From Candidatus Nomurabacteria bacterium GW2011_GWD2_36_14 (lineage in GTDB: Bacteria; Patescibacteriota; Minisyncoccia; Phycocordibacterales; UBA9973): a DNA stretch of 64,000 bases. How positions within the stretch are numbered: the stretch's first letter is position 1; every line of letters begins with the position of its first letter. Below, piece by piece: positions 3,262-43,122 of this stretch. The DNA lies in assembly GCA_000991405.1 (NCBI GenBank), contig LBRL01000001.1, positions 222,172-286,171 on the forward strand, read 5' to 3'. The translations under genes were made by a program, and so were the position numbers. Below the pieces are notes generated by a model. That model saw only the letters and a program-made list of their open reading frames with translations, did not search any database and was not told the origin of the DNA.

Positions 3262-3960
3262 TTATACCACAAGTGCTATATGTTCTAAAATCATTTTCAC
3301 ACTTGCTCCCGGAACAGAAAGAAAATCTCGACAATTTTTTAATTCATTTAAGATAAATTTAAGATTTTCATTATCTACATCACCTTTCCATTTCTTATAA
3401 ATAATTCTTTCAAGTCCATTGATGAGTGATGTGGCCTCATGTCGCAAGCCTCCACTGTTTTCATTGTCTTTAAACTCTTTAATTATTTCTGCTACTTTTT
3501 CTATGCGTGTACTCTGTGTAGAATTTATAAACAGAAAGGCAATCTTATCATCTTCACTATTATTATCACCTCCATTAATCCTAACTAAGTGCGTCCTTGA
3601 TAATATGGTATCTAGAAGTAGAGAGGCATCAGGTACAATGATGAAAAAATGTGAACTAGGAGTCGGCTCCTCGATTATTTTAAGTAAACTTTGCTCCGCT
3701 TCACGATTGATAAACTTGGCTCCAATTATGCAAATCTTTTTCCTTCCATCGGTGGGCTTGTTCTGATACCATTCCTTTATATCGTGACTATCTTGTATGG
3801 CAAACGAGTCAAAGATAGAAAGCATGACATCCGGACTGTTTCTATTCACTTCTCCTCTTTCTTCTAGAAAGACACGCAACAAATACGCTATGTCATCTAT
3901 GTTACTTTCTATCACATAGCTATGATATAAATCCTTCGGAAATAAATTATTGAAATCCAT
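3262..3960 (-). CDS. holB: DNA polymerase III delta-prime-like clamp-loader subunit
   Basis: KICIIGAKFINREAEQSLLKIIEEPTPSSHFFII...LLDTILSRTH (sensor/SRC-like). Start moved to MDFNN so it does not overlap the upstream gene. Confidence 0.6.
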   Translation of the reverse strand: MDFNNLFPKDLYHSYVIESNIDDIAYLLRVFLEERGEVNRNSPDVMLSIFDSFAIQDSHDIKEWYQNKPTDGRKKICIIGAKFINREAEQSLLKIIEEPTPSSHFFIIVPDASLLLDTILSRTHLVRINGGDNNSEDDKIAFLFINSTQSTRIEKVAEIIKEFKDNENSGGLRHEATSLINGLERIIYKKWKGDVDNENLKFILNELKNCRDFLSVPGASVKMILEHIALVV

Positions 3961-3964
3961 ACAC

Positions 3965-4831
3965 TTATTGTACCTCAAATGGGAAGAATTCCGAAAGCTC
4001 TCCTGAATAATAGAATTCGTATGAAAGCCCACCAAAGGTATAGTCGCGGTTATTGATGGTAATAGTGGAGCCTCCAACTTCGGGATTTTCCTTTGGTATA
4101 GATCTTTTAAAACCTATATTAAATAGTGTAGCCAGCACTTCAGGTCTATCATTTATAGAAAACTCAGAATTTTCCCATTGTTGCATTATTTCTTTTAAGT
4201 ATATTGCTGTGTATAAATACGAATAGTAGTGATTGTGGCTATCTGTAAACCTTGCGAGCCTTTGTGAATCTATATTATTTGTATCACTATAATCTAGTAA
4301 ATTTACATAATCTTTACCGAGATAAAAAGGGCTATTTACATCTTTTAAGTTTGTCTCTATTTCTTTTGCTGTTTCTATTTTTATACCAGAAATACCATAA
4401 GAGAATTGACTATATGTTCCTAATATCTTTAATGGTTCAAAGAATTTCTTGAAAGACTCTCTATTGGAAGTGAAGAACCTAAGTTGTTCAGGCATTATAC
4501 TTGATACAATAAGCCGACTAGGTACATCTGTTATATCACTTACCTTGAGGATAATTTCTTTATCTTTCAAAACACCTTCTTTGAATGTCGCGAATTCATT
4601 TCCTTTCATCCATTCACTATTTATACTACTATAATAATCAGCAACACGTGACTCTTGATTTTTTATTTTATTAAAATAATTATTTCTAGAATCTATACTT
4701 CCCTTCACATCTGTCAGGTGTAAACGCATGGCAACGAAAACACCAGAGAAAATAATTCCCAGCCCTGCAAAGCAACACAGAAGAAAAATCAATATTATTC
4801 GTAATATCTTATTATTCCTTAAAATTTTCAT
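3965..4831 (-). CDS. Membrane-anchored protein (N-terminal TM, large extracytoplasmic domain), immediately downstream of mreB; possible MreC analog by position only
   Basis: 288 aa with an N-terminal hydrophobic helix. No sequence motif recognised. Confidence 0.4.
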   Translation of the reverse strand: MKILRNNKILRIILIFLLCCFAGLGIIFSGVFVAMRLHLTDVKGSIDSRNNYFNKIKNQESRVADYYSSINSEWMKGNEFATFKEGVLKDKEIILKVSDITDVPSRLIVSSIMPEQLRFFTSNRESFKKFFEPLKILGTYSQFSYGISGIKIETAKEIETNLKDVNSPFYLGKDYVNLLDYSDTNNIDSQRLARFTDSHNHYYSYLYTAIYLKEIMQQWENSEFSINDRPEVLATLFNIGFKRSIPKENPEVGGSTITINNRDYTFGGLSYEFYYSGELSEFFPFEVQ

Positions 4832-5942: not shown

Positions 5943-7937
5943 ATGTATATAGTAACTGTTATTCCAATACAAAAAGGTTTTCAAGGAGAAAATCTAACTT
6001 ACTTCTCTCCTGTCGAAATTCTTCTAGGAAGTATAGTCTCCATCCCTCTCCGATCTAAAACGAGAGACGCTATCGTCATAAATGTAGAGAATGTACGTGA
6101 TTTGAAATTTGATTTGAAAAAAGCAGACTTTCAACTTAAGAAAATAATAAATATCAAAGGTCCTTCCCCTTTTTCTCCAGCCTTCTTCACAGCTTGCGAG
6201 AAAATGAAAGACTACACTGTCAGTAATACAGGCACAATCATCAAATCACTTCTACCCGCTTTATTTCTAGAAAATTTGAAAGATTTGAAACGAGCAAAAA
6301 AAATAGATGAAGAAGCTAAATCCAACAAAGTTGGATCGCCCGACACTAGAGTAGAAGTGTTTAGGGAAAATATCAAACAAGAGAAATTAATTTTCCAAGC
6401 TCTTATTCCTGACCGTATGAGCTGGTATCGAACTCTGATACGAGAAGCTTTCGCAAAGAAGGAGTCAGTGTTCATATGTGTACCAACCCTTTTTGACATA
6501 GAACAATTCACAATCGAACTTACAAAGGGTATTAGCCAGTACGTCTTCTCCTTCCATGGAGACTTGAGCAAGAAGACACTTATAAATACATATAACTCTT
6601 GCATGGAAGAAACTCATCCAATACTTATCATCGGTACTGGCATGTTCCTATCTATTCCTCGAGAAGATATCCGGACAATTATAATCGAACATGAAAATTC
6701 AGATTCATATAAACAATTTTCTCGTCCGTTTCTCGACATCCGCACTTTCGCAGAGATCCTTTCATCTGTAAATAAAGTTAAGTTAATCTTTGGCGATACA
6801 CTTCTTCGTCCTGATACACTCTATAGACACGATGAAGGAATCCTAGGAGAAGTCGCTTCACCTCTCTTCCGTCTTCCACAAGCTGAGAGGCAAATGGTAG
6901 TAGATATGCGAGAGCAAGTCGACGACAAAGGAGTAAAATCTTTCACTGTATTATCCGATACAACAAAGAAAATGATTGCTTATGCTCTAGAGCACCATGA
7001 ATCCGTCCTTCTCTTCACTGTCCGTAAGGGATTGGCGGGAGTTACTGTATGTCATGATTGTGGATATACTCTTCTCTGTCCTACATGTTCTACTCCTGTC
7101 GTACTTTATGGTTCCAAGCAGAGAAATGCTACAAAGATTGTAAACTCCCGTATCTTCATGTGCAATAAATGTGGGTACAAAGATACAACCGAAGTCAGAT
7201 GTGTAAATTGTCAAAGCTGGAATCTTACCCCTCTGGGTATAGGAACAGATAGAGTATATGAAGAAGTGAAAAGTTTGTACCCCAATGCTAAAATAATCCA
7301 AATAGATAAAGAGACTATCACTTCCAACAAGGAAGCTAGAGGGAAAATGGCTGAATTCTATAAAAATCCCGGAAGCATACTCATAGGTACTGAAATGGTC
7401 TTCTCTTATATCAATACCGAAGTCACCCACAGCGCTATAGTCTCACTTGATGGGCTTCTATCTATACCAAGCTTCAATATCACACAAAAGATTCTTCATA
7501 TAATGGAGAAGCTCCACGAGACGACGAAACGCAATCTCATAATTCAAACTCGCATTCCGGAGAATCCAATACTAGAACATATACTAAACGGCAACGTCTT
7601 ACCTCTTTATCGTGAAGACTTAAAAGAAAGGAAACAATTTGGATACCCACCATTCAAAAGACTTATCAAGATAACCTTTGGAGGTTCTGCCAGTGAGACA
7701 GAGAAGGCACGTGCACACATCGATTCATTACTTGGTGGATATGAGCCACAGATATTTAGCGCCTTCATAGGCAAAGTAAAAGGTCAGTACACTACAAACA
7801 CCGTCATTAAAATAGACCCAAATCTCTGGCCACTACCTATAGACGACAAAAGCATATCAAATACTCACCTTAGAGAAAGTCTACGTAGCCTTCCTCCTGC
7901 ATTTTCTATAAATGTAGACCCCGAAGATTTACTGTAG
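5943..7937 (+). CDS. priA: Primosomal protein N' (PriA) homolog with degenerate ATPase motifs
   Basis: The N-terminus is a 3'-DNA-binding-domain-like VTVIPIQKGF...YFSPV. A Cys-rich zinc-binding region follows (CHDCGY..CPTC....CNKCGY...CVNC). Walker A (GSGKT) is absent and DEEH is replaced by IEHEN. Confidence 0.6.
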   Translation: MYIVTVIPIQKGFQGENLTYFSPVEILLGSIVSIPLRSKTRDAIVINVENVRDLKFDLKKADFQLKKIINIKGPSPFSPAFFTACEKMKDYTVSNTGTIIKSLLPALFLENLKDLKRAKKIDEEAKSNKVGSPDTRVEVFRENIKQEKLIFQALIPDRMSWYRTLIREAFAKKESVFICVPTLFDIEQFTIELTKGISQYVFSFHGDLSKKTLINTYNSCMEETHPILIIGTGMFLSIPREDIRTIIIEHENSDSYKQFSRPFLDIRTFAEILSSVNKVKLIFGDTLLRPDTLYRHDEGILGEVASPLFRLPQAERQMVVDMREQVDDKGVKSFTVLSDTTKKMIAYALEHHESVLLFTVRKGLAGVTVCHDCGYTLLCPTCSTPVVLYGSKQRNATKIVNSRIFMCNKCGYKDTTEVRCVNCQSWNLTPLGIGTDRVYEEVKSLYPNAKIIQIDKETITSNKEARGKMAEFYKNPGSILIGTEMVFSYINTEVTHSAIVSLDGLLSIPSFNITQKILHIMEKLHETTKRNLIIQTRIPENPILEHILNGNVLPLYREDLKERKQFGYPPFKRLIKITFGGSASETEKARAHIDSLLGGYEPQIFSAFIGKVKGQYTTNTVIKIDPNLWPLPIDDKSISNTHLRESLRSLPPAFSINVDPEDLL

Positions 7938-11242: not shown

Positions 11243-12169
11243 ATGTACGATTTAATTATATTAGGTGGAGGACCAGCAGGCGGAGGAGCCTCAGTGTACT
11301 CTGCTCGCAAACAACTTAAAACTGCCATTATTACAAACGAATGGGGTGGCCAGTCAATAGTATCTGAACTTATATACAACTGGATAGGAACACCAGAGAT
11401 CTCAGGAGCCGACCTGGCCTCAAATCTAAAGAAGCATACTCTTTACTATAAGGGACCTTATTTAGATATTATAGAAGGCGAGAAAATAGTGTCAGTTACT
11501 AAAGATAATAATATATTTACTATCAAATCTGAATCAGGTAAAGAATACACAACTAAAGCTGTCCTTGTAACAACAGGAAGCGGAAGACGTAAATTGGAGG
11601 CAGAAAATGCCGACAAGTACGAACACAAAGGTATAACCTACTGTGCTTCTTGTGATGGACCTATGTTTGATGGACAAGATGTGTTAGTAATAGGTGGAGG
11701 TAATGCAGCATTTGAATCAGCCGCTCAACTTCTGGCGTATTGCAAGAGTGTAACTCTAATTCACAGACGGGATGTTTTCAGAGCAGATGAAATAACGGTT
11801 AAAAAGCTTTTAGAAAATCCTAAATTTAAAGCTATAACAAATGCAGAAATAATTAGAGTCGATGGAGGACAGTTTGTGGAATCTCTAACATATAAGGATA
11901 AATTGTCAGGAGAAGAGCATACACTACAATCCAATGGTATCTTTGTAGAGATAGGCCAGACTCCAAATGTAGATTTTGTGAAAGATATAGTTAAGACAGA
12001 CGAAAGTGGGAAGATCATAGTTGACCCTATGTCCCAAGCCTCATCCCTAGAAGGTATCTGGGCTGCTGGCGACTGTACCAACGGACGCTATCACCAGAAC
12101 AACATCGCTGTCGGTGACGCAGTTAAAGCCCTCGAAGATATCTATATTTGGATACAGAAGAATAAGTAA
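11243..12169 (+). CDS. trxB: Thioredoxin-disulfide reductase
   Basis: GGGPAG FAD motif, CASCDG redox-active disulfide and an AAGDC C-terminal motif. Confidence 0.85.
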   Translation: MYDLIILGGGPAGGGASVYSARKQLKTAIITNEWGGQSIVSELIYNWIGTPEISGADLASNLKKHTLYYKGPYLDIIEGEKIVSVTKDNNIFTIKSESGKEYTTKAVLVTTGSGRRKLEAENADKYEHKGITYCASCDGPMFDGQDVLVIGGGNAAFESAAQLLAYCKSVTLIHRRDVFRADEITVKKLLENPKFKAITNAEIIRVDGGQFVESLTYKDKLSGEEHTLQSNGIFVEIGQTPNVDFVKDIVKTDESGKIIVDPMSQASSLEGIWAAGDCTNGRYHQNNIAVGDAVKALEDIYIWIQKNK

Positions 12170-12210
12170 ATGAATTTAAAAAGCTCCATAAAAAAATTCT
12201 CGGACTCACC

Positions 12211-12285
12211 ACACAATAAAATTCTGCTGAATTTTTTGCTCGCACTCGGCTCGACAGCCTGCGTGAGGGTTCGCTCGAGAACATT
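12211..12285 (+). repeat. GC-rich intergenic repeat family, copy 1 (orientation A)
   Basis: ...aattctgctgaattttttgctcgcactcggctcgacagcctgcgtgagg... Similar sequence occurs at 13146, 29132 (reverse complement) and 60933 (reverse complement). Confidence 0.7.
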
Positions 12286-12334
12286 TTTATTCCGCTTTTT
12301 AAATTACCCCATAGGCCTTGCCTGTGGGGTAATT

Positions 12335-13096
12335 TTATATATTTTCTTTTACGAGAATTTCTTCAAGAATTTCTAATTCTTGTTTAGAATTTGGTTGGAA
12401 ACCTTCCATTATGTTTGGCATCACAATAGCCTCTACCCTCTTCCCATCTTTTTGAGCTAATTCAACTAAATCGGTAAGGTAATATTCAGTTTGAGTATTT
12501 TCATTTTTTAATTTATTTATATTTTCCCAAAGCCAGCTAGCATCAAATGCATAGAAGGAGGGATTGACTTCTTTTATTTGCCTCTCCTCATTTGTAGCAT
12601 CTTTGTATTCAACAATTTTAAGAACTTGGCCATTTTTATCTCGAATTATTCTACCGAAATTATTAAGCCCAGCTCGCCAATCTTTAAAATCTGGTAAAAT
12701 TATAGTTCCAATAGCTACGACGGCCTTCTTCTCTTTTACAGTCTGAACTAAACTTTCTATTGTTTCTTTAGAAACTAAAGGCTGGTCAGAATATAAAACT
12801 ACAACTATTTTATGATCTGAATGAACCTTCTCTTTAGCCGACAAGACGGCATGACCAGTTCCAAGTTGCTCAGTTTGGTGTGCATAAATACGTTTATCGC
12901 CAAAAACTTCAAATATTCTTTCCTTCTTATACCCAACTACAATAACCGGATCAATAGGAAGATCAATTAATGATAATGTATCGAGTATCCTTTCTAAGAA
13001 TGATTTACCTTGGAGCATTGAGAGGGCTTTGGGATCATCGGACTCCATTCTCTTGCCCATCCCTGCTGCTAAAATAATGATTTGTGTATTTTGCAT
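12335..13096 (-). CDS. Sugar-phosphate nucleotidyltransferase (GlmU N-terminal-domain-like, no acetyltransferase domain)
   Basis: IILAAGMGKRM ... LGTGHAV are nucleotidyltransferase motifs. Confidence 0.65.
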   Translation of the reverse strand: MQNTQIIILAAGMGKRMESDDPKALSMLQGKSFLERILDTLSLIDLPIDPVIVVGYKKERIFEVFGDKRIYAHQTEQLGTGHAVLSAKEKVHSDHKIVVVLYSDQPLVSKETIESLVQTVKEKKAVVAIGTIILPDFKDWRAGLNNFGRIIRDKNGQVLKIVEYKDATNEERQIKEVNPSFYAFDASWLWENINKLKNENTQTEYYLTDLVELAQKDGKRVEAIVMPNIMEGFQPNSKQELEILEEILVKENI

Positions 13097-13145
13097 ATTT
13101 AAATGTGGTCACTTATAATTTTCTGGTGAAAATTTATGCGACCCC

Positions 13146-13173
13146 GCCTCGGCTCGACAGCCTCCGGCTCGCA
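13146..13173 (+). repeat. GC-rich intergenic repeat family, partial/rearranged copy 2, abutting a hairpin and tRNA-Val
   Basis: cctcggctcgacagcctccggctcgcac, followed by the hairpin cgcacaaagtat-tccc-atactttgtgcg. Confidence 0.55.
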
Positions 13174-13193
13174 CAAAGTATTCCCATACTTTG

Positions 13194-13266
13194 TGCGCGA
13201 TAGAGGATTCGAACCTCTGACATCGTCAACGTCAATGACGCGCTCTACCAACTGAGCTAACCGCGC
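13194..13266 (-). tRNA. tRNA-Val (anticodon GAC)
   Basis: Manual cloverleaf fold of the reverse complement: acceptor GCGCGGT/ATCGCGC, anticodon loop TTGACGT, T-arm AGAGGTTCGAATCCTCT. Confidence 0.85.
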
Positions 13267-13282
13267 AAAATTAAAACCTGAA

Positions 13283-13369
13283 GGATTGCTTGCGGAGGGT
13301 ACAGGATTTGAACCTGTGATCCAATTTCTCGGATTCCGCTTTTCGAAAGCGGTGCTTTCAACCTCTCAG
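13283..13369 (-). tRNA. tRNA-Ser (anticodon CGA) with long variable arm
   Basis: Acceptor GGAGGGT/ACCCTCC, anticodon loop TTCGAAA, long variable stem-loop, T-arm ACAGGTTCAAATCCTGT. Confidence 0.8.
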
Positions 13370-17908: not shown

Positions 17909-18277
17909 TTAACAGTTTCTTCCCATGTTGTTTGCTGTTGTAGGGACACATGGAGCAACTCCAGTCATAGTCTGACTATCAACACCAAATGTTCTCTGTA
18001 CCAAACCTATAATTCCCCAGAAAGCTACGATAACGAAAAGACCGATAAGACCATTGATAATCTTTGCACGGCCATTCTTCTTAGCTTCTTCGTCTGAAGA
18101 ACTTATGAAAGTAATAACTCCCCAGATAAAGTACACAACAGCAAGAGTAACCAATGCTGGTACTATATAGTTCAACCATCCTATAACTTGCATAAGAATA
18201 GTATCAACTGTTGAAACTTGAGCGGAAGCTAATAATGGAGCAAAACCTGCGAAACCTAATGCGATGAATTTTTTCAT
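17909..18277 (-). CDS. VirB2/TrbC-like pilin-type protein, paralog 2 (Sec signal peptide)
   Basis: Signal peptide MKKFIALGFAGFAPLLASAQ followed by a helix - SSSDEEAKKNGRAK loop - helix. Confidence 0.55.
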   Translation of the reverse strand: MKKFIALGFAGFAPLLASAQVSTVDTILMQVIGWLNYIVPALVTLAVVYFIWGVITFISSSDEEAKKNGRAKIINGLIGLFVIVAFWGIIGLVQRTFGVDSQTMTGVAPCVPTTANNMGRNC

Positions 18278-18427
18278 ATGATTTAACGAAATCATGTCGC
18301 GCAACCGTCCTTTTAGCGCGACGCTTATTATTCTAATAATTTTACTAAATCCTACCGACTGTAGGAACTTAAAACGTACTTACAATACTATGTATATTAT
18401 ACCAAATAAGGCACAAAATATACAATA

Positions 18428-18748
18428 TTAATTACCAGGACCTGCCTTAATATCTGAAAAATTAGTCTTACTTCCTGCTGGCAAAAATGTATTTGAGAAA
18501 ATACTAACTAACGGCCAAATACTAACCATGACAAATAATGCTATGATCCCCCAAAGCATGAAGGTCTTCCCTTCCTTCTTCTTCTCTTCATTGTCTGGAT
18601 TCAAAAAGAATTTAAGAATTCCATAAATGAAAGCAACAATCGATAGGGCTATCAGTAAGGGAATAACAAAATCAAGCAAAGTACAAGTAAAAAAGTTTAT
18701 AAGACTTGTTAAACTAGTTATTCCTTGATCACATACAACTTTATCCAT
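18428..18748 (-). CDS. VirB2/TrbC-like pilin-type protein, paralog 3
   Basis: Helix - NPDNEEKKKEGK loop - helix. Confidence 0.55.
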   Translation of the reverse strand: MDKVVCDQGITSLTSLINFFTCTLLDFVIPLLIALSIVAFIYGILKFFLNPDNEEKKKEGKTFMLWGIIALFVMVSIWPLVSIFSNTFLPAGSKTNFSDIKAGPGN

Positions 18749-18757
18749 ATTTATATA

Positions 18758-19192
18758 TTATGTTGTGCTTTTAATATCTTCGACCGTTTTACCAATGGCA
18801 TTTGCTATGACAAACGCCCCCAATAATAATGCTCCACCAATCACTGTATACAACAAAGTTTTATGAGCAACTGTCAGTTCTTCAGAGTTACCTTGGGCTT
18901 TGACGTATAGGAATCCTGCATAAATGATAGCCAAGACAAGAAGTGGCACACCGACTATAAGGACAAGGTTTATAAACCATTCTATGAATTGGGGGAGATT
19001 ATCGATGCCTTGGATGGGGTTAGTAATACCGTCAATCTGCACTCCACAAGGCTTCTGATCCTTTCCTCCACAGTTTGGATCTGCGCTAACAAACATGAAC
19101 GGCATCACTAAAGCAAAGGCAATAATAAATACAAAACTATACTTTGATATTACTGAAATGATGCTATACTTTTTTCCTATTATTTTTTTCAT
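18758..19192 (-). CDS. VirB2/TrbC-like pilin-type protein, paralog 4 (signal peptide, Cys pair)
   Basis: Signal peptide, CGGKDQKPC, then a helix - AQGNSEELT loop - helix. Confidence 0.55.
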   Translation of the reverse strand: MKKIIGKKYSIISVISKYSFVFIIAFALVMPFMFVSADPNCGGKDQKPCGVQIDGITNPIQGIDNLPQFIEWFINLVLIVGVPLLVLAIIYAGFLYVKAQGNSEELTVAHKTLLYTVIGGALLLGAFVIANAIGKTVEDIKSTT

Positions 19193-19231
19193 TTAATTTA
19201 TTTAAAAAATTTATTTCGACAATATTAATAA

Positions 19232-20236
19232 TTACTTTTGATTCATAGGGGTCAGGAAGGTGTTGATAGTGGAATCGAGCTTGACGTTACTTACTATCGT
19301 ACTAATTATAAGCCATGCTGACAATGCTATAACATACCCAACAACAGCATTGAGGAGAATATGCTTCACCTTCTCTACTTGTCCAGACTTACCTCCTGCA
19401 GTTAAATACAAGTACCCAGTGTACATAAGTATGAGAGCCATGAGTGGAGTTGCTATAACAAACAAGAGAAACTTGATAGCGTTGTTTATAAGCTTCATAA
19501 AGAAGGTAAAGTCACAAGGAACTTTGTATTGACCTGTCACTTTATCTATATCTCCCGTGTTACACTTCGGAACTATGCCATTACTCTTCATATCTGTAAT
19601 GACAGGGTCTTCGGGAGTATTTGAAGGAGTGGGGGGGACTATTTTACTTAATTCAAAAACATTGAGAGCATTTTTCAAACTTCTCGTTGCATTATCTATA
19701 TCTGACTGTATATAATTTATATCAGCAGGTGCTCCAGCAACGTGTTTGGCATCTTTAATAGCATCACTTAATCTGGCTTTTGATCCTTGAGCATATTCCC
19801 CAGCAGAATACCCTTCGACAGCCTTATCATAAGCATTGTTGGCTTCTGATATCATGCCATTTAGTGCACTGAAATTTAGTGGTACCTTAGGTGTACTAAA
19901 TCCAATTTCGTATGATAGGTTATCGATCTTAACTTTGGCCTTATAGTTAACCCCAGCATCAAGCCCTGAGAAGGAAGCTTCTCCTCCACCCTTCTCATCG
20001 GTAATCAAATCAGCAGTAAGTTGCTTGTGATCTGTGGTATATCCTTTATCTGGAATTATATTAACTTTTGTAACTGTACTTGGAGGAATACCAGAAACTT
20101 TTATAGTAACAGAATTGGAGGTTAGATCTGAATAAGTCATTACTACTCCAGCACTATCCACTATATGAGAAAATGAAATAGCAGACAAAAGTACAAATAT
20201 AAATGCAAATATAAATCCTAGGAATTTTTTATTCAT
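19232..20236 (-). CDS. Secreted protein with a C-terminal VirB2/TrbC-like pilin domain fused to an N-terminal extracellular domain
   Basis: Signal peptide, a roughly 220-aa extracellular region, a Cys pair (KCNTGD...VPCDF), then a helix - AGGKSGQVEK loop - helix. Confidence 0.5.
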   Translation of the reverse strand: MNKKFLGFIFAFIFVLLSAISFSHIVDSAGVVMTYSDLTSNSVTIKVSGIPPSTVTKVNIIPDKGYTTDHKQLTADLITDEKGGGEASFSGLDAGVNYKAKVKIDNLSYEIGFSTPKVPLNFSALNGMISEANNAYDKAVEGYSAGEYAQGSKARLSDAIKDAKHVAGAPADINYIQSDIDNATRSLKNALNVFELSKIVPPTPSNTPEDPVITDMKSNGIVPKCNTGDIDKVTGQYKVPCDFTFFMKLINNAIKFLLFVIATPLMALILMYTGYLYLTAGGKSGQVEKVKHILLNAVVGYVIALSAWLIISTIVSNVKLDSTINTFLTPMNQK

Positions 20237-25720: not shown

Positions 25721-25746
25721 CAGATAGGGGCTCAACCCCTATCTGG
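25721..25746. repeat. REP-like GC hairpin, copy A; the transposase stop codon lies in its loop
   Basis: cagataggggctcaacccctatctgg. Confidence 0.8.
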
Positions 25747-26436
25747 CAAACTCTCTATAACAACATTCAAATTTTCATCTTCAAGAAGAGATTTCTTTCC
25801 TCTTTCTTCTCTCACTATAGAAACTATTTCATCACAATGTTTTTTAAACTTATTTATTCCTCTAAAGATTTCTAAAATTCTTTTCCCTTCTTTTTTAGAT
25901 ATTATATTGAACTTATTATTTTCATACTCAAAATCTCCCGAGAAAACTAAATCACTTTTGTTTTCTGGAATATTATGAATTAAATAATTTTTATTTACAT
26001 AGCCTATCAATTTATTAAAATAATTATCATTAGCTATCAATTGAGATTTAAATCTACCTTGAAATAAAACTCCAGATCTAGTGTTTTTAATATTAAAATA
26101 TGAAGTATAACCACCAGATAACTTATGCATAAATTTAGAAATACCATTATCTGAAACTTGTTTTAAAATCAAATGAAAATGGTTGGGATTTAAACAATAC
26201 CCTACTACTTCCACTAGTGATTCCCCAGATAGGGGCTCAACCCCTATCTGGGGATTTGATTTTAATTTTCGCAAATTTGCTAGACTATTTATTTTATCTT
26301 CTCGATTAAATTCTTTTATGCTTTCGATAAAGCGATAAATATCATTTTTATCAGTAAAAATATCTCGTTTATCTACCCCGCGATTATAAATATGATACAT
26401 CTCTCCTGTTATTAGAGGTTGTCTTCTTATACTCAT
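25732..26436 (-). CDS. IS200/IS605-type HUH Y1 transposase (RAYT-like)
   Basis: MYHIYNRGVDKRDIF, HFHLIL (HUH), GVLFQGRFKS. Contains an in-frame REP hairpin insertion. Confidence 0.75.
   Translation of the reverse strand: MSIRRQPLITGEMYHIYNRGVDKRDIFTDKNDIYRFIESIKEFNREDKINSLANLRKLKSNPQIGVEPLSGESLVEVVGYCLNPNHFHLILKQVSDNGISKFMHKLSGGYTSYFNIKNTRSGVLFQGRFKSQLIANDNYFNKLIGYVNKNYLIHNIPENKSDLVFSGDFEYENNKFNIISKKEGKRILEIFRGINKFKKHCDEIVSIVREERGKKSLLEDENLNVVIESLPDRG
26223..26253. repeat. REP-like GC hairpin, copy B, inside the transposase ORF in frame (encodes PQIGVEPLSGE)
   Basis: ccccagataggggctcaacccctatctgggg. Confidence 0.8.
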
Positions 26437-31211: not shown

Positions 31212-31769
31212 ATGGTTGAAATCATTCAAAGTGAAAATCCGGTTTTGCGTAAAATTGCAAAGGAGGTGCCTGTTGCAAATATAACAAAGCCCAAAATACA
31301 AAAGATTCTAAATGATATGAAAGTAGCTCTGAATTCTCAGAATGATGGCGTGGCTATTGCTGCTCCACAGATCGGAGTCTCACTTCGAATCTTTGTCGTT
31401 TCAGGAAGAATCTTTGACGAAGATTTCATTCGAGGTAAGGGCTCAACAGAAAAGAATTTATATAAAAAGCCTCGCGAGAAAGATCTCGTCTTCATTAATC
31501 CAGTATTATCAAAAATCTCCAAGGATAGGAAGCTAATGTCTGAAGGATGTCTGTCTGTACGACCTATCTATGGCAAGGTTCGCCGTGCTACCCGCGCTAC
31601 AGTCGAAGCTTATGATGAGAATGGTAAGAAGTTCACTAAGAGTGGCAGTGGCCTCCTAGCACATATATTCCAGCATGAGACAGACCACTTGGATGGAATC
31701 TTGTTTACCGACAAAGCCAAAGACATGTATGAATCTTTCGACTTAGAAGAACCTAAGGAGAAACAATAA
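31212..31769 (+). CDS. def: Peptide deformylase
   Basis: EGCLS and QHETDHLDG motifs. Confidence 0.9.
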   Translation: MVEIIQSENPVLRKIAKEVPVANITKPKIQKILNDMKVALNSQNDGVAIAAPQIGVSLRIFVVSGRIFDEDFIRGKGSTEKNLYKKPREKDLVFINPVLSKISKDRKLMSEGCLSVRPIYGKVRRATRATVEAYDENGKKFTKSGSGLLAHIFQHETDHLDGILFTDKAKDMYESFDLEEPKEKQ

Positions 31770-31774
31770 TCTAA

Positions 31775-32629
31775 ATGACAACTAAAAATCTAAAATTTGT
31801 ATTCTTTGGTACGCCGATGGTTGCAAGTAAAACGCTTGAGATTATGAAAGAGAAAGGATACTTGCCGTCGCTTATCGTCACCTCTCCTCCTGCCCCATCT
31901 GGACGCGGGCTTCTAATGCACGAAACTCCTGTCGCTCTGTGGGCAAAGGAGAATGGCATAGAGTGTCTTACTCCAGAAAAAATTGATGATGAATTTACTT
32001 TGAAACTTTCAACTTTGAACTTTCAACTTTTTGTGGTTGTTGCTTATGGGAAGATACTACCAGAGACTCTGATAAAAGCCCCTCGTCTTGGTACTATCAA
32101 TATTCACTATTCCCTACTTCCAAAGTACAGAGGCGCTTCCCCTCTAGAAGCAACACTTCTAAATGGAGATGAAGTGACTGGTATTAGTATCCAGCAAATG
32201 GAATACAAGCTAGATAGTGGCAAGATAATAATACAAGAAGAATTAGAAATTGGAATAAACGACACCAAGGAAGAACTCCGCGAAGAGCTCATAAACCTTG
32301 GAGCAAATTGCTTATGCGATATTCTACCAGAGATAGAGTCAGAAAATATTGTCCCCAAACTACAAGATGAATCACAAGTAACCTTCTGTAAGAAAATTAA
32401 GAAAGAAGACGGCGAAATAGATATAAATGGTAACCCAAGAGAGAATTGGAACAAGTATAGGGCTTTCTACGGATGGCCGGGGGTATTCTTCTTTGCTGAA
32501 AGGCATGGAAAGAAGTTGAGAATTAAAATAAAATGGGCATCTTATCAGAACAACTCGTTTGTCATCAAACGAGTTGTTCCTGAAGGAAAGAAGGAAATGA
32601 GCTACGAAGAATTCCTAAAGTGGAATTAA
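31775..32629 (+). CDS. fmt: Methionyl-tRNA formyltransferase
   Basis: FFGTP N-terminus, NIHYSLLPKYRGASP. Confidence 0.9.
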   Translation: MTTKNLKFVFFGTPMVASKTLEIMKEKGYLPSLIVTSPPAPSGRGLLMHETPVALWAKENGIECLTPEKIDDEFTLKLSTLNFQLFVVVAYGKILPETLIKAPRLGTINIHYSLLPKYRGASPLEATLLNGDEVTGISIQQMEYKLDSGKIIIQEELEIGINDTKEELREELINLGANCLCDILPEIESENIVPKLQDESQVTFCKKIKKEDGEIDINGNPRENWNKYRAFYGWPGVFFFAERHGKKLRIKIKWASYQNNSFVIKRVVPEGKKEMSYEEFLKWN

Positions 32630-36842: not shown

Positions 36843-37802
36843 TTACTCCCACTCAAATCCCCTTCCAAAGTGTCCCCAAGTGCAAGTATCGCGAAATTTG
36901 ACTTGGTCTAATTTCAAGTACTCATGTATACCTCTTGGAGTGAGATCGTAGCCAGATATTTCCGACTCTTGCCCATCTATGACAGCTACCGCCATGACGG
37001 GCTCTTCTTGCCCTATAGCATAAGCGAGCTTTGTATAGACTTCTTTAGCATTATTCTTCTTCAGTAGTTCTACTGCTATCTTGCGAGCCATATAAGCTCC
37101 AGAGCGGTCAACCTTCGTATCATCCTTCCCCGAGAAGGAGCCTCCGCCTATCGTTATTTCTGGACCATAATTATCTACTATTAGCTTTCTTCCCGAGAGG
37201 CCTGTGTCTGCGTCAAATCCTCCCAAGGTCCATTCGCCTGCTGGATTTATAAGATATTTATCAGACTCAATAATACTTTTTACAAGTTCTAGTAATTTAT
37301 CGTTTTTTGTATTTTGAAAGCTAGCGACAACTGTAGTGACCACTCCATCCTTCACTGTTACTTGCGTCTTGCCATCATACGGATAAACTTCAAATATCTT
37401 TTGGCACAAATTCCGAGCAAGGTGGTACTCAAGTGGTAGGTATGAGTCCGTCTCACCTGTAGCATATCCTTTCATAATTCCCTGATCGCCAGCTCCACCA
37501 GTGTCTACACCTTGGGCTATTTGCGGACTTTGTAAAACAATATTTGAAATAATTTTAAAATCTTTACCAACTATATCTTTCACAACTTGCTCTATGTCTG
37601 GGTTTGCTTTTGAAGTTACCTCACCATTTATAGTTACAAGTCCATGCCCACCCATTACTTCTATTGCACAACGACTACTCTTGTCGCCATCTAGATATGC
37701 GTCTAATATACTGTCTGCAATAAAATCACATATTTTATCTGGATGCATTGGACTCACAAACTCTGCTGTCTTTATACTCATGCTTGATTCTTGGCCGAAC
37801 AT
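36843..37802 (-). CDS. metK: S-adenosylmethionine synthetase
   Basis: HPDKICDFIADSILDA..., GGGSFSGKDDTKVDRSGAYMAR. Confidence 0.85.
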   Translation of the reverse strand: MFGQESSMSIKTAEFVSPMHPDKICDFIADSILDAYLDGDKSSRCAIEVMGGHGLVTINGEVTSKANPDIEQVVKDIVGKDFKIISNIVLQSPQIAQGVDTGGAGDQGIMKGYATGETDSYLPLEYHLARNLCQKIFEVYPYDGKTQVTVKDGVVTTVVASFQNTKNDKLLELVKSIIESDKYLINPAGEWTLGGFDADTGLSGRKLIVDNYGPEITIGGGSFSGKDDTKVDRSGAYMARKIAVELLKKNNAKEVYTKLAYAIGQEEPVMAVAVIDGQESEISGYDLTPRGIHEYLKLDQVKFRDTCTWGHFGRGFEWE

Positions 37803-38108: not shown

Positions 38109-38183
38109 TCCGTGGTAGCTCAGCGGTAGAGCGATCGCCTGTTAAGCGATTGGTCGTAGGTTCGATCCCTACCCACGGAGCCA
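38109..38183 (+). tRNA. tRNA-Asn (anticodon GUU), CCA encoded
   Basis: Acceptor TCCGTGG/CCACGGA, D-arm GCTCAGCGGTAGAGC, anticodon loop CTGTTAA, T-arm GTAGGTTCGATCCCTAC. Confidence 0.9.
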
Positions 38184-39737
38184 GACAGGACAAAGGGACT
38201 CAAAAGAGTCCTTTTGTCGTTTATTAGTAACTGTTTTATTTAGTTCGAAAATCTTTTGAGCATCTATTTTTTCTTGAACTCTCTTAGATAGGACCTCAAC
38301 AGGTTTCTTTAGTAACGGTATGACTTTTTCGTCTTTTAACATCAAGTTCGAAAAAATATGAGATAAAAGTAATCTTCGTTCTTCAGGACTTCTTTTTTCA
38401 TATATTTCTCTTGCTCTAAAAGCAAGATCTAATATATTTAACCAAATTTCAAAATATTTTGTTTCTACATTTTTTATTCTTGATATTTGTTCTTGTATCT
38501 CTGATTGTTCTTGATTTATTTCTTTTTGTTTTTTCTCCCAACCTTCAGTACTAATTTTTTGATCAAGTCTATCATTGTAGAGTATATCTAGTCGACTCTG
38601 TAGTTGAATATAACGAGCATTAAGAGTGTTTAGAGTGTTCTCTTTGTATTCTATCTCTTGAGCATGATTTGTTTTAATTTTGGCTTTTATAGCCTCAGCT
38701 TCTTTTTCTGTAATATTCTCAAAAAACTTGAAAACTCCGAAAAGCTGTTCCTCAATTTTCTTCTCTGGAGTATATGGTTTTTGAGTGCAGTCTTTATAAT
38801 GGTTACAATGATAATACACAATTCCTTTCTTTATCTCCGCTGTAATAGTACAGTTACATTCTCCACATTTCATCATCTTTCTAAATTGGAAACTATGTTT
38901 GCTGTAGGTAGGAGCTAGATGACCCCTTCTCACACTCTGGGCTTTATCAAATAGTTCTTTTGTGATTATAGGCTCATGCTTTCCTCCTGAGTGAAGTATA
39001 CTATTCCATCTCATAGCTCCGTAATAGAATGGTTCATTTAGAAGGTCTTCTATTCTATTTTTGGCTGGTTTATTACCTGCACGAGTTCTAAATCCTTCAG
39101 TATAAAGTTTTTGCCTCAATGCTTCCATCGAATAGTTACCACTGGCATACATTTCGAAAGCCTTTTTAATAAATGGAGCTACTTCTTCATCAATTACATG
39201 AATTTTGTGCCCTTTATCTCCAATTGTTTTGTACCCAATAGGAGGCTTAGTTGGAAGCCACCCCTGAGCTAATTTTTCCACTTGACCTTTCTTAACTTCC
39301 TCAGAAAGATTAGATATAAACTTTTTAGCTAACACAATTTCAATATCCCAACGAAACTTTTCATCAGATTTGGCATTCTTATGAAGAATAAGATTTTGTT
39401 TTACGAAGTGTATCTTTCTTTCTAAATCTTCATCTATCCAGTCATTAGCAAATACAGCTTCTTTTAAGTTACGAGTTAAACGATCCACCTTTTCAACTAT
39501 TAGATTCTTAATGTCATTTTTCTCTATAAATGACATCATTTCTGCGAATACTTTTCTCTGTTTTGCTCCACTAGCACTCTCGGCCACAGCAAATACTTTT
39601 ACATTTGTAATTCCTTTTCTATTGGCATATTCAGAGAGTAATTTCTCCTGTGAAGGAAGAGAATAACCTGTTTCTTCTTGTTCTTTTGAAGAAACTCGGC
39701 AATATAGCACAGAATTATTTATATTAGAGGTTTTCAT
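38169..39737 (-). CDS. Large serine recombinase (integrase); the last 5 codons overlap the tRNA-Asn 3' end
   Basis: N-terminal catalytic YCRVSSKEQ; C-terminal Cys-rich zinc-ribbon and coiled-coil typical of large serine recombinases. Confidence 0.8.
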   Translation of the reverse strand: MKTSNINNSVLYCRVSSKEQEETGYSLPSQEKLLSEYANRKGITNVKVFAVAESASGAKQRKVFAEMMSFIEKNDIKNLIVEKVDRLTRNLKEAVFANDWIDEDLERKIHFVKQNLILHKNAKSDEKFRWDIEIVLAKKFISNLSEEVKKGQVEKLAQGWLPTKPPIGYKTIGDKGHKIHVIDEEVAPFIKKAFEMYASGNYSMEALRQKLYTEGFRTRAGNKPAKNRIEDLLNEPFYYGAMRWNSILHSGGKHEPIITKELFDKAQSVRRGHLAPTYSKHSFQFRKMMKCGECNCTITAEIKKGIVYYHCNHYKDCTQKPYTPEKKIEEQLFGVFKFFENITEKEAEAIKAKIKTNHAQEIEYKENTLNTLNARYIQLQSRLDILYNDRLDQKISTEGWEKKQKEINQEQSEIQEQISRIKNVETKYFEIWLNILDLAFRAREIYEKRSPEERRLLLSHIFSNLMLKDEKVIPLLKKPVEVLSKRVQEKIDAQKIFELNKTVTNKRQKDSFESLCPVWLRG

Positions 39738-39825
39738 AATTGTATTTTAACTTATTTTTATAATTTATTATAATCTTTTTATTTAGTCTTATTAGTATGA
39801 CCTTAAGTCATGTATAAATTTACTG

Positions 39826-40188
39826 TTAGTCATATGGACCCTGTGACTTTAAGTCACTTGGTTTAGTAGCCCAATCCTTTGAATGCGTAAGATAGTACTG
39901 ATTACTGACCCATTGTCCTCTACTTTTTGTTTTGGTTATTTTTATAAATCCATATTTTTCTAAGATAGGGAGATGTCTAATAACTGTTCTTGGGTTTATG
40001 TGCAATTCTTCTGATATTAGTACCTCTGATGGGAATGCAATTCTAGTCTTGCTGTTTGAGTGTCTTTTTAGGCAAAGATAGATAGAAGTCCCTATGGGTC
40101 CTATAAGTTTTGCATATTGGTCTATAAATACATTACCCATCTTAAACCAACCTCCATTTTTTGTTTTTATATATTTCAGCTCATTCAT
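39826..40188 (-). CDS. Winged-HTH protein resembling the RepA_N / replisome-organizer N-terminal domain
   Basis: FIDQYAKLIGPIGTSIYLCLKRHSN...ISEELHINPRTVIRHLPILEKYGFIKI. Confidence 0.5.
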   Translation of the reverse strand: MNELKYIKTKNGGWFKMGNVFIDQYAKLIGPIGTSIYLCLKRHSNSKTRIAFPSEVLISEELHINPRTVIRHLPILEKYGFIKITKTKSRGQWVSNQYYLTHSKDWATKPSDLKSQGPYD

Positions 40189-40195
40189 AAATTTA

Positions 40196-40468
40196 TTAAA
40201 TATTAGAATCTAGAGTTGATTCCCTAGGAGCTGACACTAGGGAATCAACTTTAAGTTCCAATTTTTCTTTTTGTTTATCTTCATAATCAAACTTTGCAAG
40301 CAAGTCAAAAAAAGATGAAAGTTCATTCAACTCTTGAATATTTAATTCTTCTTCTGTTGAGCTATCTAATCTCATTGTTAAAATACTGACGACATATTTT
40401 TTCAATCGTCTTAGATAAGGTAAAATTCTTTTTCTGAGATAACTCAGAAAGTTTCTCGTGTAGATCAA
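40196..40468 (-). CDS. Hypothetical protein (90 aa)
   Basis: ORF only. Confidence 0.35.
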   Translation of the reverse strand: MIYTRNFLSYLRKRILPYLRRLKKYVVSILTMRLDSSTEEELNIQELNELSSFFDLLAKFDYEDKQKEKLELKVDSLVSAPRESTLDSNI

Positions 40469-40647
40469 CCACTATACGAATTTGCTTCGTAATTCTTCTT
40501 CTTTTTGCGTGACAAATTATCTTTACCATTTAATAATTATCTCATCACTTATTACTGGTGGTAACTTTCTTTTACCTTCACTCTATATTCACGCAATGTA
40601 AAAAAATAACCCTATTTAATAAGGTTATTTTTACTTGTGGATAAGTA

Positions 40648-41313
40648 CTACTTAATAATTGAGATGGAAAAAATGTATTTATTAAAACAATAGCCAGAAC
40701 CAGCAGGAATAATTAAATTATTTTCTTGCTCAAATTTATCTTCAAAAGATTTGTTTATATTTTTAATAGCAGTAGAAACACTTCGTTCTTCTGAATATCC
40801 AGCTTCTTCTGTTAGTTTAGACATCGTTTTTGGTGATCCTTTTGACAACAATTTTAATATTTCTAGTTTTTTATCACTAACTTTTATTGAATTTTTTGAG
40901 TCTTCCTTAAGAAAAATCAGACCTCGTAAGTCTATACAAACTTTTTGTTTATTATCTTTTTTTGTATACTTTTGTAAAGTAATTGGATTATCTTCTATTT
41001 GATTTTTAAGTAATTCAATTTTTTCTTTTGCTATGCTGGGGGCAATTCTTCTAATTAGTAAATCATCACCTATATTCTCTTCAGAAAAATATTGCTGTTT
41101 ATCTATTAGGATCAGTTTTTCAAGTACTTTCGATAAATTATTTAAGTCTTGCATAGTAACACCATAAGCATTCAATGAATAAAGGGGTATTCTAGTATTA
41201 GAAGAAAAACCAGGAAAACCTTTTTGGTAATTTTCAATAAGGTTTACAACTTGTAACATTTTATCACAGTCTTCTTTTGTTAGTTTAGGTGTATTGATAA
41301 TATATTCTTCCAT
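40648..41313 (-). CDS. DNA-binding protein with C-terminal OmpR/PhoB-type winged helix, no receiver domain
   Basis: VSDKKLEILKLLSKGSPKTMSKLTEEAGYSEERSVSTAIKNINKSF. Confidence 0.45.
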   Translation of the reverse strand: MEEYIINTPKLTKEDCDKMLQVVNLIENYQKGFPGFSSNTRIPLYSLNAYGVTMQDLNNLSKVLEKLILIDKQQYFSEENIGDDLLIRRIAPSIAKEKIELLKNQIEDNPITLQKYTKKDNKQKVCIDLRGLIFLKEDSKNSIKVSDKKLEILKLLSKGSPKTMSKLTEEAGYSEERSVSTAIKNINKSFEDKFEQENNLIIPAGSGYCFNKYIFSISIIK

Positions 41314-41861
41314 ATTAAAGATAATCTCATTTTTTTAGGTTTTTGTCGACAATTTTTTATTTAATTGAGTCAAAGAAATGCGACCTTTTGCGACCCATTA
41401 TATTTATCGATATTTTATAAGACTCTTTAATCTAATAATTTCTTATTGGAATTAAATATACTTCCACAAAATATCTTGTAAATAAATGACATTCTGATCA
41501 TACCCATACTAAAATACCGAGTTTTGCCTAGTCCTAAAATGCCACCTTTTGCCACCCACTCTTCCCGCCTTTTCCCACCCCTTTTCACCTCTAATACATC
41601 AGACTTTTTCAGACTTTTTATAAAAGAATCTATTTATTGTATTTGTCGACAAAAAGAGCTATTATAAAAATACAACGCCTAAACCAGAAATGGCATGGCT
41701 ACATAGGAAACCCACGCAAATAGTAATGGCCTCACAGTCATCACCATTTGCGTGGGTCCATATTCGAAAGAGTATGGGGTGTTCTCGAAAGAGGATATCA
41801 GATGGTCTGTGGGGCCTTTACTGTCTTCATAACCATATTATAAATTAAAAACCCACGCAAA
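41314..41861. promoter_or_regulatory. AT-rich noncoding region with palindromes and direct repeats (candidate operator/iteron-origin region of the element)
   Basis: TTGTCGACAA palindrome twice (about 41341 and 41643). AAACCCACGCAAA twice, forming a 12-bp inverted repeat at 41710-41762. A CCACC(T)TTT pyrimidine-repeat tract. Confidence 0.5.
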
Positions 41862-42848: not shown

Positions 42849-42858
42849 AAATACTTTT

Positions 42859-43122
42859 ATGAAAATTAACCTATTATTTTGGATATTTATACTAATAGCT
42901 TTCATTGGAACATTTTTATATTATCTAGGAGAAACAAGGAAGAATAATATCGGTGAGGTCATTAAGTTTTCTGGAGGAATTATTACATTTGGTATTCTAA
43001 TATCCTCATTCTTTTTATTAGAATGGAAGGCGTCATTCTTGCTTATTATTGGCGAATTCACAATAATCAGTTTTTTATCAACTTTACTTGTTGAATCTAT
43101 GACAAAGAGACGTATAAATTAA
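42859..43122 (+). CDS. Small membrane protein (3 TM)
   Basis: ORF with hydrophobic helices. Confidence 0.4.
   Translation: MKINLLFWIFILIAFIGTFLYYLGETRKNNIGEVIKFSGGIITFGILISSFFLLEWKASFLLIIGEFTIISFLSTLLVESMTKRRIN

Follow-up and report, generated by a model that had tools for sequence, protein, structure and literature searches.

In Escherichia coli, the K230R substitution in PriA (priA300) abolishes the ATPase, helicase and translocase activities, while PriA-PriB primosome assembly and restart stay intact (PMC5778457). Since K230R keeps PriA-PriB restart going without ATPase, the scaffold role of PriA is separable from its motor. In Deinococcus radiodurans PriA, arginine stands in place of the Walker A lysine and motifs I and II are off consensus (PMC4504706); the protein has no ATPase and no unwinding activity, and it binds single-stranded DNA, forks and DnaB (PMC4504706; Lopper, Boone & Morrow 2015). 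The survey that accompanied the Deinococcus-Thermus PriA covered 100 genera in 18 phyla and predates the CPR genomes (PMC4504706). Full-text searching found no report of an ATPase-dead PriA in CPR/Patescibacteria. The sole paper found that names both PriA and Patescibacteria deals with a different phylum.

Here we analysed a stretch of 64,000 nucleotides (64 kb, the window) from Candidatus Nomurabacteria (Paceibacteria, Patescibacteria/CPR). One open reading frame of the window is, as we consider likely, the chromosomal PriA orthologue of this organism, now a pseudohelicase. PriA pseudohelicases had so far been known only from Deinococcus-Thermus, and the lineage described here adds a second natural instance that is far larger. 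An earlier note on this DNA had already taken the protein for a PriA homologue with lost Walker motifs, and it overlooked the characterised precedent, the D. radiodurans PriA pseudohelicase. The features of the gene are shown in Table 1.

Table 1 The priA-like gene of the window, with its domains and former helicase motifs.
Feature	Position (nt)	Strand	Basis
priA-like CDS, 664 aa + stop codon	5943..7937	+	ORF list
3' DNA-binding domain, aa 1-105	5943..6257	+	Pfam PF17764; beta-rich in AF2 model
Linker, short and poorly conserved, aa 106-146, replaces winged-helix domain	6258..6380	+	alignment, AF2 model
RecA-like lobe 1, aa 147-330, without nucleotide-binding motifs	6381..6932	+	alignment to PriA structures, AF2
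Former motif I / Walker A: QALIPDRM, aa 152-159	6396..6419	+	opposite E. coli GVTGSGKT 224-231
Former motif II / Walker B: EHEN opposite DEEH	6687..6698	+	alignment with E. coli PriA
Former motif III: GDTLL opposite GSATP	6792..6806	+	alignment
RecA-like lobe 2, aa 331-570, with zinc-finger insert; motifs IV and V kept	6933..7652	+	alignment to PriA structures
Cysteine-rich region, two Cys4 zinc sites, aa 370-423	7050..7211	+	sequence; aligned with E. coli CRR
Former motif VI: MEKLHETTKR, 5-residue deletion takes out GRAGR (arginine fingers)	7503..7532	+	alignment
C-terminal domain, aa 571-664	7653..7934	+	NF004066 alignment; AF2 model

The open reading frame opens with ATG, and an in-frame TTG lies further upstream at 5925; since homologues share the N-terminal MYIVTV, translation probably begins at 5943. 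Membership of the PriA family, as claimed before, was borne out by fold, domain order and profile matches. Alignment with TIGR00595 (NCBIfam), a check that the earlier note had proposed together with structure prediction of the RecA-like domains, gave a PriA match of 198.5 bits, below the equivalog cutoff of 230.35, and NF004066 (NCBIfam) scored 226 bits, below its cutoff of 813. The best PDB matches were PriA without exception. The AF2 model (pLDDT 89.4, pTM 0.87) has the PriA fold, with two RecA-like lobes forming an SF2 core of PriA-specific topology. In the Foldseek search with this model, PriA chains occupied ranks 1-9 (TMq 0.58-0.78, E 1e-40 to 3e-26), led by fork-bound E. coli PriA (8fak_H, TM 0.78), and the next family, Mfd, reached a TM of only 0.35. 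The model also appeared to fit the fork-bound PriA structure better than the apo structure, which is weak evidence. Identity to canonical PriAs was 21-26%, and BLAST alignments to them begin at residue 162, immediately past the former P-loop. By neighbour-joining, the protein and its relatives split from seven canonical PriAs in 100/100 bootstraps.

The 3' DNA-binding domain, the Cys4-Cys4 zinc insert and the C-terminal domain had each been read as present, and all three were recovered. PF17764 matched aa 25-105 with E 4.3e-7 and a score of 30.1 bits that exceeds its cutoff of 22.7, and residues P8, Y20 and G29 of the 3' DNA-binding domain (3'BD) do not vary across the family. Opposite this Y20, the 3'BD of E. 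coli PriA has D17 of its TFDY stretch, so that recognition of the 3' end may work differently. The eight zinc-site cysteines are C370, C373, C379, C382, C407, C410, C420 and C423 (CHDCGY..CPTC..CNKCGY..CVNC), and the full set is found in 454 of 463 relatives. For the C-terminal domain, the alignment reaches position 786 of 788 in the NF004066 profile, and E. coli residues 633-732; the AF2 model of this part is beta-rich and confident, and PF18074 was precomputed on the C-terminal domain of a few homologues. Lobe 1 was modelled as alternating beta/alpha with pLDDT above 90. The winged-helix domain, which is present in E. coli PriA and whose universality in the PriA family is not established, is absent: E. 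coli residues ~111-195 are without counterpart, and the 41-residue linker found in their place (pLDDT 50-63) shows the lowest conservation of any segment in the family.

We compared the helicase motifs with those of canonical PriAs, for which a tblastn search of the plasmid collection supplied controls. The seven used here come from Pseudomonadota, Bacillota, Cyanobacteriota, Bacteroidota and Fusobacteriota. All seven controls show G[VI]T[GS]SGKT, DEEH, SATP and GRAGR, and the window protein and its relatives show none of these. At Walker A, R158 takes the position of E. coli K230, and all three P-loop glycines are replaced; the position of the Mg-coordinating threonine is hydrophobic in the family. 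In the AF2 model a helix begins at residue 155 within the former P-loop, the loop being shrunk to two residues. The same site is strongly conserved among the relatives, with R158 in 463/463, an acidic residue 157 in 450/463 and Q152 in 453/463. The substitutions at Walker A and B described in the earlier note are thus real in the alignment; its register at Walker A was off by one residue (QALIPDRM, not ALIPDRMSW).

A shifted but intact P-loop, which that note had named as grounds for refutation, was excluded by a regular-expression scan of the whole 664-aa protein, in which neither [AG]xxxxGK[ST] nor G[KR][ST] occurs, and pattern scans of the 150 representatives likewise contained no shifted P-loop. 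Three chance matches to [AG]xxxxGK[ST] turned up in the pattern scans, all at non-homologous positions. SecA, encoded in the same 64-kb window, retains GEGKT.

At motif II, the stretch IIIEHENSDSYKQ aligns with VIDEEHDSSYKQ of E. coli PriA. The family pattern here is [ED]-[KHR]-E-[SN], with position 249 acidic in 463/463 relatives, K/H/R at 250 in 398/463 and E251 in 459/463, so the position of the catalytic glutamate is usually occupied by Lys, His or Arg. Beyond motifs I and II, to which the earlier note had confined itself, motifs III and VI, the KG of motif V and the winged-helix domain are also lost; the motif VI region is the least conserved among the former motifs. The motifs that contact DNA (Ia, IV and V) have been retained. 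P181 was found in 148/151 representatives and T232 in 150/151; motif IV is retained as R361-K-G363 (R361 in 146/151, G363 in 149/151), and in motif V G482-T-E484 is retained (GTE in 124/151). The prediction that the protein is unable to hydrolyse ATP is backed by the absence of all nucleotide-contacting motifs. Because the same states recur in 463/463 relatives, the motif loss is not a matter of chance or sequencing error.

Whether related genomes share the degenerate motifs, another check proposed earlier, was answered by these 463 relatives, examined down to ~35% identity and carrying Nomurabacteria, Paceibacteria and Parcubacteria names: every one of them has the invariant arginine at the Walker A lysine position and no P-loop. 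Among representatives of clusters at 50% identity, the best 150 (35-63% identity to the query) showed this motif state without exception. Four representatives still read [DE]EEH at motif II, and a profile search seeded by these four gave, among the matches listed, only Paceibacteria-type proteins with the Walker A arginine. In the GTDB species-genome collection, relatives were confirmed by one family peptide pattern in 433 stretches; the 80 that were kept bear Nomurabacteria, Paceibacteria and Parcubacteria-type names, apart from some named Saccharibacteria and one named Burkholderiales. The query matches ~11,900 50%-identity clusters, up to 1,956 of which outscore the level expected for canonical PriAs. 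The identical protein occurs in 67 blocks of the assembly collection, and all 24 of the 24 contigs read carry it.

The reading frame is intact in every relative examined, and dozens of positions are invariant among sequences just ~35% identical. pN was 0.09-0.12 against a saturated pS of 0.7-0.8, the RecA lobes being no different from the rest; their conservation matches that of the 3'BD and the zinc-finger region. Loss of the ATP motifs is therefore ancient, common to a very large clade and kept by purifying selection. The motif state thus characterises the whole lineage of Paceibacteria-type CPR bacteria rather than a single genome, a second point that the earlier note had missed.

The gene sits in a stable housekeeping neighbourhood across its relatives. 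Its upstream side carries MreB in 59/66 loci. On the downstream side, S21, YbeY and FtsA each occur in 39-40 of 67 loci, FtsZ occurs in 34, and def-fmt is the immediate neighbour in 7/67 loci and also in locus L001. The canonical priA of Monoglobus is also adjoined by def-fmt, and this matching priA-def-fmt order supports orthology with canonical priA. When the family HMM was run against all six-frame ORFs, no second PriA-like ORF, the other ground for refutation named in the earlier note, was detected in the 64-kb window, nor did the same HMM detect one in 83 related loci (~20 kb, at most ~22 kb each). The identical protein sits on scaffolds of 0.2-0.8 Mb, and the genomes are probably ~1 Mb or smaller. 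Pfam and NCBIfam scans of ~50 window ORFs revealed no DnaB, loader, PriB, DnaT or SSB, and within the window none of DnaB, loader, DnaD, PriB and SSB stands beside the priA-like gene. A weak, sub-threshold DnaD_N match lies at 39826-40188, inside a mobile element. The relatives are annotated as "primosomal protein N' (superfamily II helicase)" or "hypothetical protein", and both current labels are inaccurate.

With all the elements for binding and hydrolysing ATP lost (P-loop, DExH box, motif III and motif VI fingers), the protein is predicted to be inactive as an ATPase and helicase, and we infer from its sequence that it can neither hydrolyse ATP nor unwind DNA. The best reading, by analogy with priA300 and D. 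radiodurans PriA, is that it would serve as an ATP-independent scaffold for fork recognition and helicase recruitment. The earlier suggestion of a structural or loader-only restart factor agrees with this, as the lost ATP motifs go together with conserved DNA-contact motifs, zinc fingers, 3'BD and C-terminal domain. The protein would recognise abandoned forks and D-loops by structure-specific binding, and its DNA binding would probably depend on the conserved 3'BD and on motifs Ia, IV and the GT of V, the single-stranded-DNA grip of the SF2 core. Recruitment of DnaB may follow, a step proposed by analogy; any unwinding needed might be avoided or fall to a different helicase. The old nucleotide pocket has not drifted freely: it now carries charged residues conserved in the family, [ED]-R (157-158) and [ED]-[KHR]-E (249-251), and these probably form a network of salt bridges that fixes the arrangement of the two lobes. 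A bolder proposal, which we regard as rather doubtful, is that much of the CPR restarts replication with a PriA that has long been motorless and perhaps accounts for a large share of PriA diversity; the pocket would then be a charge network that mimics bound nucleotide and locks the lobes in the fork-bound, partner-ready state, making the protein a constitutively 'on' adaptor. It would follow from this proposal that giving up the motor could be advantageous in cells lacking RecG or PriC-type pathways, since the helicase activity of PriA harms E. coli without RecG (PMC5778457).

It is unlikely, in our judgement, that the protein, as the only PriA descendant of the cell, has been repurposed and no longer takes part in replication restart, its DNA-binding and zinc modules serving instead in, for example, fork protection, recombination control, the handling of competence DNA or a structural role on the chromosome. 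Such a change of function would suit the loss of the winged-helix domain, the altered residue at the E. coli D17 position and the charged signature of the old pocket, as well as the absence of linked primosome partners in the window and the company of FtsA, FtsZ and MreB in ~60% of loci. However, every module needed for restart by the D. radiodurans and K230R proteins is retained, some members of the clade still have the canonical priA-def-fmt linkage, and small CPR genomes presumably still require DnaB reloading. We find it quite improbable that the gene is a paralogue beside a canonical, active PriA elsewhere in the genome, with PriA helicase activity never given up. The data span the 64-kb window and loci of at most ~22 kb, which suits a distant second copy, but neither the window nor the 83 related loci hold one, and the gene occupies a conserved housekeeping position, in some lineages the priA-def-fmt position itself. 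Retention of a paralogue would presumably also be unusual in genomes of this probable size, and the sources that give a name use primosomal protein N'.

A rebuilt catalytic centre made of Arg158 and Glu251, with non-canonical binding or hydrolysis of nucleotide, would explain why R158, the acidic residue 249 and E251 are essentially invariant, beyond what neutral decay leaves, and a second, weaker nucleotide site has been reported in E. coli PriA, its location not known (PMC5778457). This explanation is nevertheless highly improbable, since none of the three glycines remains and the model turns the loop into a helix, the Mg-coordinating threonine and the catalytic glutamate are replaced by a hydrophobic residue and usually by Lys, His or Arg, respectively, and both motif VI arginines are deleted; K230R by itself abolishes the ATPase of E. 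coli PriA (PMC5778457). Scores below the NCBIfam equivalog cutoffs, and the "hypothetical protein" written by several submitters, could be taken for a gene without function, either decaying or an artefact of annotation or assembly. That is scarcely credible for a frame intact in every relative, with pN ~0.1 against saturated pS, dozens of invariant positions at ~35% identity and an identical protein in 67 assembly blocks, and a decaying pseudogene was rejected on these selection and conservation data.

Under the preferred reading, a scaffold for fork recognition and helicase recruitment, a lineage without the motor but with the scaffold is natural evidence that fork recognition and partner recruitment are the indispensable part of PriA, unwinding being accessory. 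A minimal PriA of ~650 aa, lacking both the winged helix and the ATPase motifs, would also lend itself to structural and biochemical studies of helicase reloading. Two questions follow: what loads DnaB in CPR bacteria, and whether any helicase, and which one, clears the lagging-strand arm.

Like the Deinococcus-Thermus pseudohelicase as published, the window protein has arginine for the Walker A lysine, a motif II that departs from the consensus and a zinc-finger region that is preserved. A scan of the genome contig collection with the gene-specific 19 nt of a published primer for D. radiodurans priA gave no match, and no Deinococcus or Thermus was among the tblastn matches listed from the plasmid collection (queries E. 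coli PriA and the window protein). The window protein differs in coming from another phylum, Patescibacteria, in a decay that extends to motifs III and VI (GRAGR deleted) and to all three P-loop glycines, and in being short (~650 aa) and without a winged-helix domain. E. coli priA300 carries a substitution to Arg at the same residue (K230 = R158); it is, however, a laboratory point mutant that is otherwise canonical, whereas the window protein is a natural multi-motif loss. The priA300 protein acts with PriB, DnaT and DnaC and fails in the PriA-PriC pathway. Compared with canonical PriA (TIGR00595 / PRK05580; 4NL4, 6DGD, 8FAK), the window protein lacks the winged-helix domain and the ATP motifs and falls below the equivalog cutoffs, but it has the same order of 3'BD, lobe 1, lobe 2 with the Cys4-Cys4 insert, and C-terminal domain, and some of its relatives share the priA-def-fmt neighbourhood.

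The window protein was assigned to PriA by its sequence homology and its predicted fold. The sole Pfam match was the PriA 3' DNA-binding domain (3'BD; 30.1 bits vs a cutoff of 22.7), NCBIfam returned PriA models only, each below its equivalog cutoff (TIGR00595, 198.5 vs 230.35), and the only significant PDB matches were E. coli and K. pneumoniae PriA (E of 1e-28 with the single sequence, 5e-54 with a family profile). An AlphaFold2 model from 107 diverse relatives was confident (pLDDT 89.4, pTM 0.87), and in a Foldseek search with it ranks 1-9 were all PriA chains, the best being 8fak_H, fork-bound E. coli PriA (TMq 0.78, TMt 0.81); the next family, Mfd, reached a TM of 0.35. These matches agreed with the earlier note, which had called the protein a PriA homologue. 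The model lay nearer to fork-bound PriA (TM 0.78) than to apo or winged-helix-deleted structures (0.66), a hint from prediction. When the protein was compared by BLAST with canonical PriAs (21-26% identity), the alignments began, whatever the phylum, at residue 162, immediately C-terminal of the former P-loop, and a neighbour-joining tree set the family apart from seven canonical PriAs in 100/100 bootstraps.

These seven controls, from E. coli, Bacillota (two), Cyanobacteriota, Bacteroidota, Fusobacteriota and Alphaproteobacteria, were aligned with the window protein and 16 divergent relatives. G[VI]T[GS]SGKT, DEEH, SATP and GRAGR were found in all 7/7 controls, and the corresponding stretches of the window protein are listed in the table. 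In motif I the three glycines were gone, E. coli K230 was replaced by R158 and E. coli T231 by Met. The winged-helix domain (E. coli ~111-195) was absent, with a poorly conserved 41-residue linker of low model confidence in its place. The motif Ia Pro, motif IV R-[RK]-G and motif V G-T-[QE] were retained, together with all eight cysteine zinc ligands and the C-terminal domain (CTD). The substitutions quoted in the earlier note were thus real, with its Walker A register off by one residue (QALIPDRM stands opposite GVTGSGKT); the loss of Walker A and B that it described was understated, since motifs III and VI and the winged helix were also lost. The DNA-binding, zinc-finger and C-terminal regions that it had listed were found as the 3'BD match, the eight cysteines and an aligned CTD. 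No shifted intact P-loop or P-loop-like sequence was found in a scan of the whole protein. A compositional or assembly artefact as the cause of motif loss was rejected, because SecA in the same window retains GEGKT.

Features of the window and motifs of its PriA homologue (aa numbers count along the window protein)
Feature	Position	Strand	Remark
RseP, Frr, HolB-like clamp-loader subunit, MreB	before priA-like gene	-	window gene content
priA-like CDS	5943-7937	+	ORF of 664 aa
Motif I (Walker A)	aa 152-159		canonical GVTGSGKT; here QALIPDRM
Motif II (Walker B)	aa 249-252		canonical DEEH; here EHEN
Motif III	aa 284-288		canonical GSATP; here GDTLL
Motif V			canonical GTQ...KG; here GTE kept, KG gone
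Motif VI			canonical GRAGR; here MEKLHETTKR, 5-residue deletion
S21, YbeY, FtsA, FtsZ, TrxB	after priA-like gene	+	window gene content
GyrA, S1, HisS, Def-Fmt, DnaE, SecA	farther along window		window gene content
tRNA-Asn	38109-38183	+	adjoins serine recombinase gene
Large serine recombinase	38169-39737	-	Resolvase, Recombinase, Zn_ribbon_recom domains
Small HTH protein	39826-40188		weak DnaD_N match
ClpP/SDH-like protease	43598-44572		in GC 28-30% stretch

The degenerate motifs were shared by related genomes. Among 1.84 billion cluster representatives searched, 1,956 matched at E <= 1e-30, and the P-loop was missing in all of the best 150 of these (35-63% identical to the window protein); motif II still read [DE]EEH in only 4 of the 150, and those four had lost motif I too. 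Searches of a 5.8-billion-protein collection brought the total set to 463 full-length relatives, carrying the names Nomurabacteria, Paceibacteria/Paceibacterota, Pacebacteria, Taylorbacteria, Parcubacteria, Minisyncoccia and Patescibacteria. Position 158 was Arg and position 249 acidic in 463/463, position 157 was Asp/Glu in 450, position 250 Lys/His/Arg in 398 and position 251 Glu in 459, and 454 had the full set of eight cysteines. The GTDB species-genome collection held 433 stretches with relatives confirmed by one family peptide pattern. The two RecA-like lobes were as conserved as the 3'BD, zinc-finger region and CTD, and against the closest genomes every domain showed 0.09-0.12 non-synonymous differences per site, with synonymous differences saturated at 0.7-0.8. 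As judged from sequence, the motor-less PriA is a selected state across the lineage. Some loci, L063 among them, come from MAGs titled 'uncultured Candidatus Saccharibacteria' with a 60-69%-identical copy of the Nomurabacteria-type gene, and one contig titled 'Burkholderiales bacterium' holds a 42%-identical copy; the source records are here probably mislabelled in taxonomy or contaminated through binning.

The window (low GC, ~36%) is a chromosomal segment of a bacterium of the candidate phyla radiation (CPR, Patescibacteria). The identical protein is recorded in Candidatus Nomurabacteria bacterium GW2011_GWE2_36_115 and on scaffolds up to 800 kb, and the nearest GTDB species genome among the matches listed, another Nomurabacteria MAG, shows 84% identity. 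MreB lay upstream of the gene in 59/66 loci; S21, YbeY and FtsA lay downstream in 39-40/67 and FtsZ in 34/67. No second PriA-like ORF was found within the 64-kb window or any of 83 related loci, which, with the stable housekeeping position, argues for a single-copy positional orthologue in that set. Directly downstream, def and fmt were found in 7/67 loci, those of more distant relatives, and in L001, the locus of a 40%-identical relative; this priA-def-fmt order is that around the canonical priA of Monoglobus (coaBC-priA-def). In the window def-fmt (31212-32629) lies 23 kb from priA, and in L001 it is at 11904-13299. It seems that an ancestral block of priA, def and fmt was split up within Nomurabacteria.

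Other features were observed in the window. The HolB-like (DNA_pol3_delta2) ORF at 3262-4077 overlaps by ~110 nt an ORF at 3965-4831, whose 288-aa product, with an N-terminal membrane helix and no family match, is conserved between holB and mreB in close relatives; public gene calls give a HolB of 232 aa and the same 288-aa protein. Three small ORFs at 17909-20236 match PF18895 (T4SS_pilin) beside a MalE-like solute-binding protein, and in a 68%-identical relative a similar pilin cluster occurs in the syntenic region (L002, 20954-21953). A 234-aa ORF with an IS200-like Y1 transposase domain (25732-26436) stands out in a genome this small and streamlined, and a short S-adenosylmethionine synthetase (36843-37802, 319 aa) has N-terminal and central domains that partly match Pfam models. 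After the serine recombinase, GC falls to 28-30% and many ORFs lack family matches; region 38109-48000 resembles a mobile element or prophage that has integrated at tRNA-Asn.

In E. coli PriA, the single change K230R eliminates the ATPase, helicase and translocase activities, and cells with this allele (priA300) are nearly wild type, the PriA-PriB pathway needing only a scaffold (PMC5778457). For D. radiodurans PriA, with Lys-to-Arg at Walker A, neither ATPase activity nor unwinding could be measured; the protein binds ssDNA (Kd ~215 nM) and forks (~108 nM), and complexes with DnaB (PMC4504706). In CPR PriA, the alignments indicate that the ATP-contacting parts are all lost and that the DNA-contacting and potential partner-contacting parts are all kept. 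The earlier note's prediction of a structural or loader-only protein unable to hydrolyse ATP is accordingly likely to be correct. By analogy, CPR PriA most likely serves, independently of ATP, as a platform for recognising forks and D-loops and recruiting the replicative helicase. In place of drifting sequence, the former nucleotide pocket shows a charged signature that is new and strongly conserved, and in the model a helix extends into the former P-loop; because of both, a salt-bridge network fixing the lobes' relative position is suggested, as a hint from prediction.

The PriA pseudohelicase as a kind, and its key substitution, are already known. A 2015 survey of 100 genera in 18 phyla singled out Deinococcus-Thermus (PMC4504706), and a 2017 review still listed Deinococcus as the sole exception (PMC5778457). 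In full-text literature searches no paper on the PriA of CPR bacteria was found, and in public records the relatives carry either the name "primosomal protein N'" or the name "hypothetical protein". The novelty lies in the lineage, Patescibacteria, with hundreds of species and very deep divergence, and in how complete the loss is, taking in motifs I, II, III and VI and the winged helix. For replication specialists this is worthwhile, not startling, because genetics and the Deinococcus work had already shown that PriA can function without its motor. Given the phylogenetic distance between the phyla, the Deinococcus and CPR losses seem likely to be independent. The Walker A Lys-to-Arg change is common to both proteins, and CPR PriA has gone beyond D. 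radiodurans PriA in the direction of motor loss.
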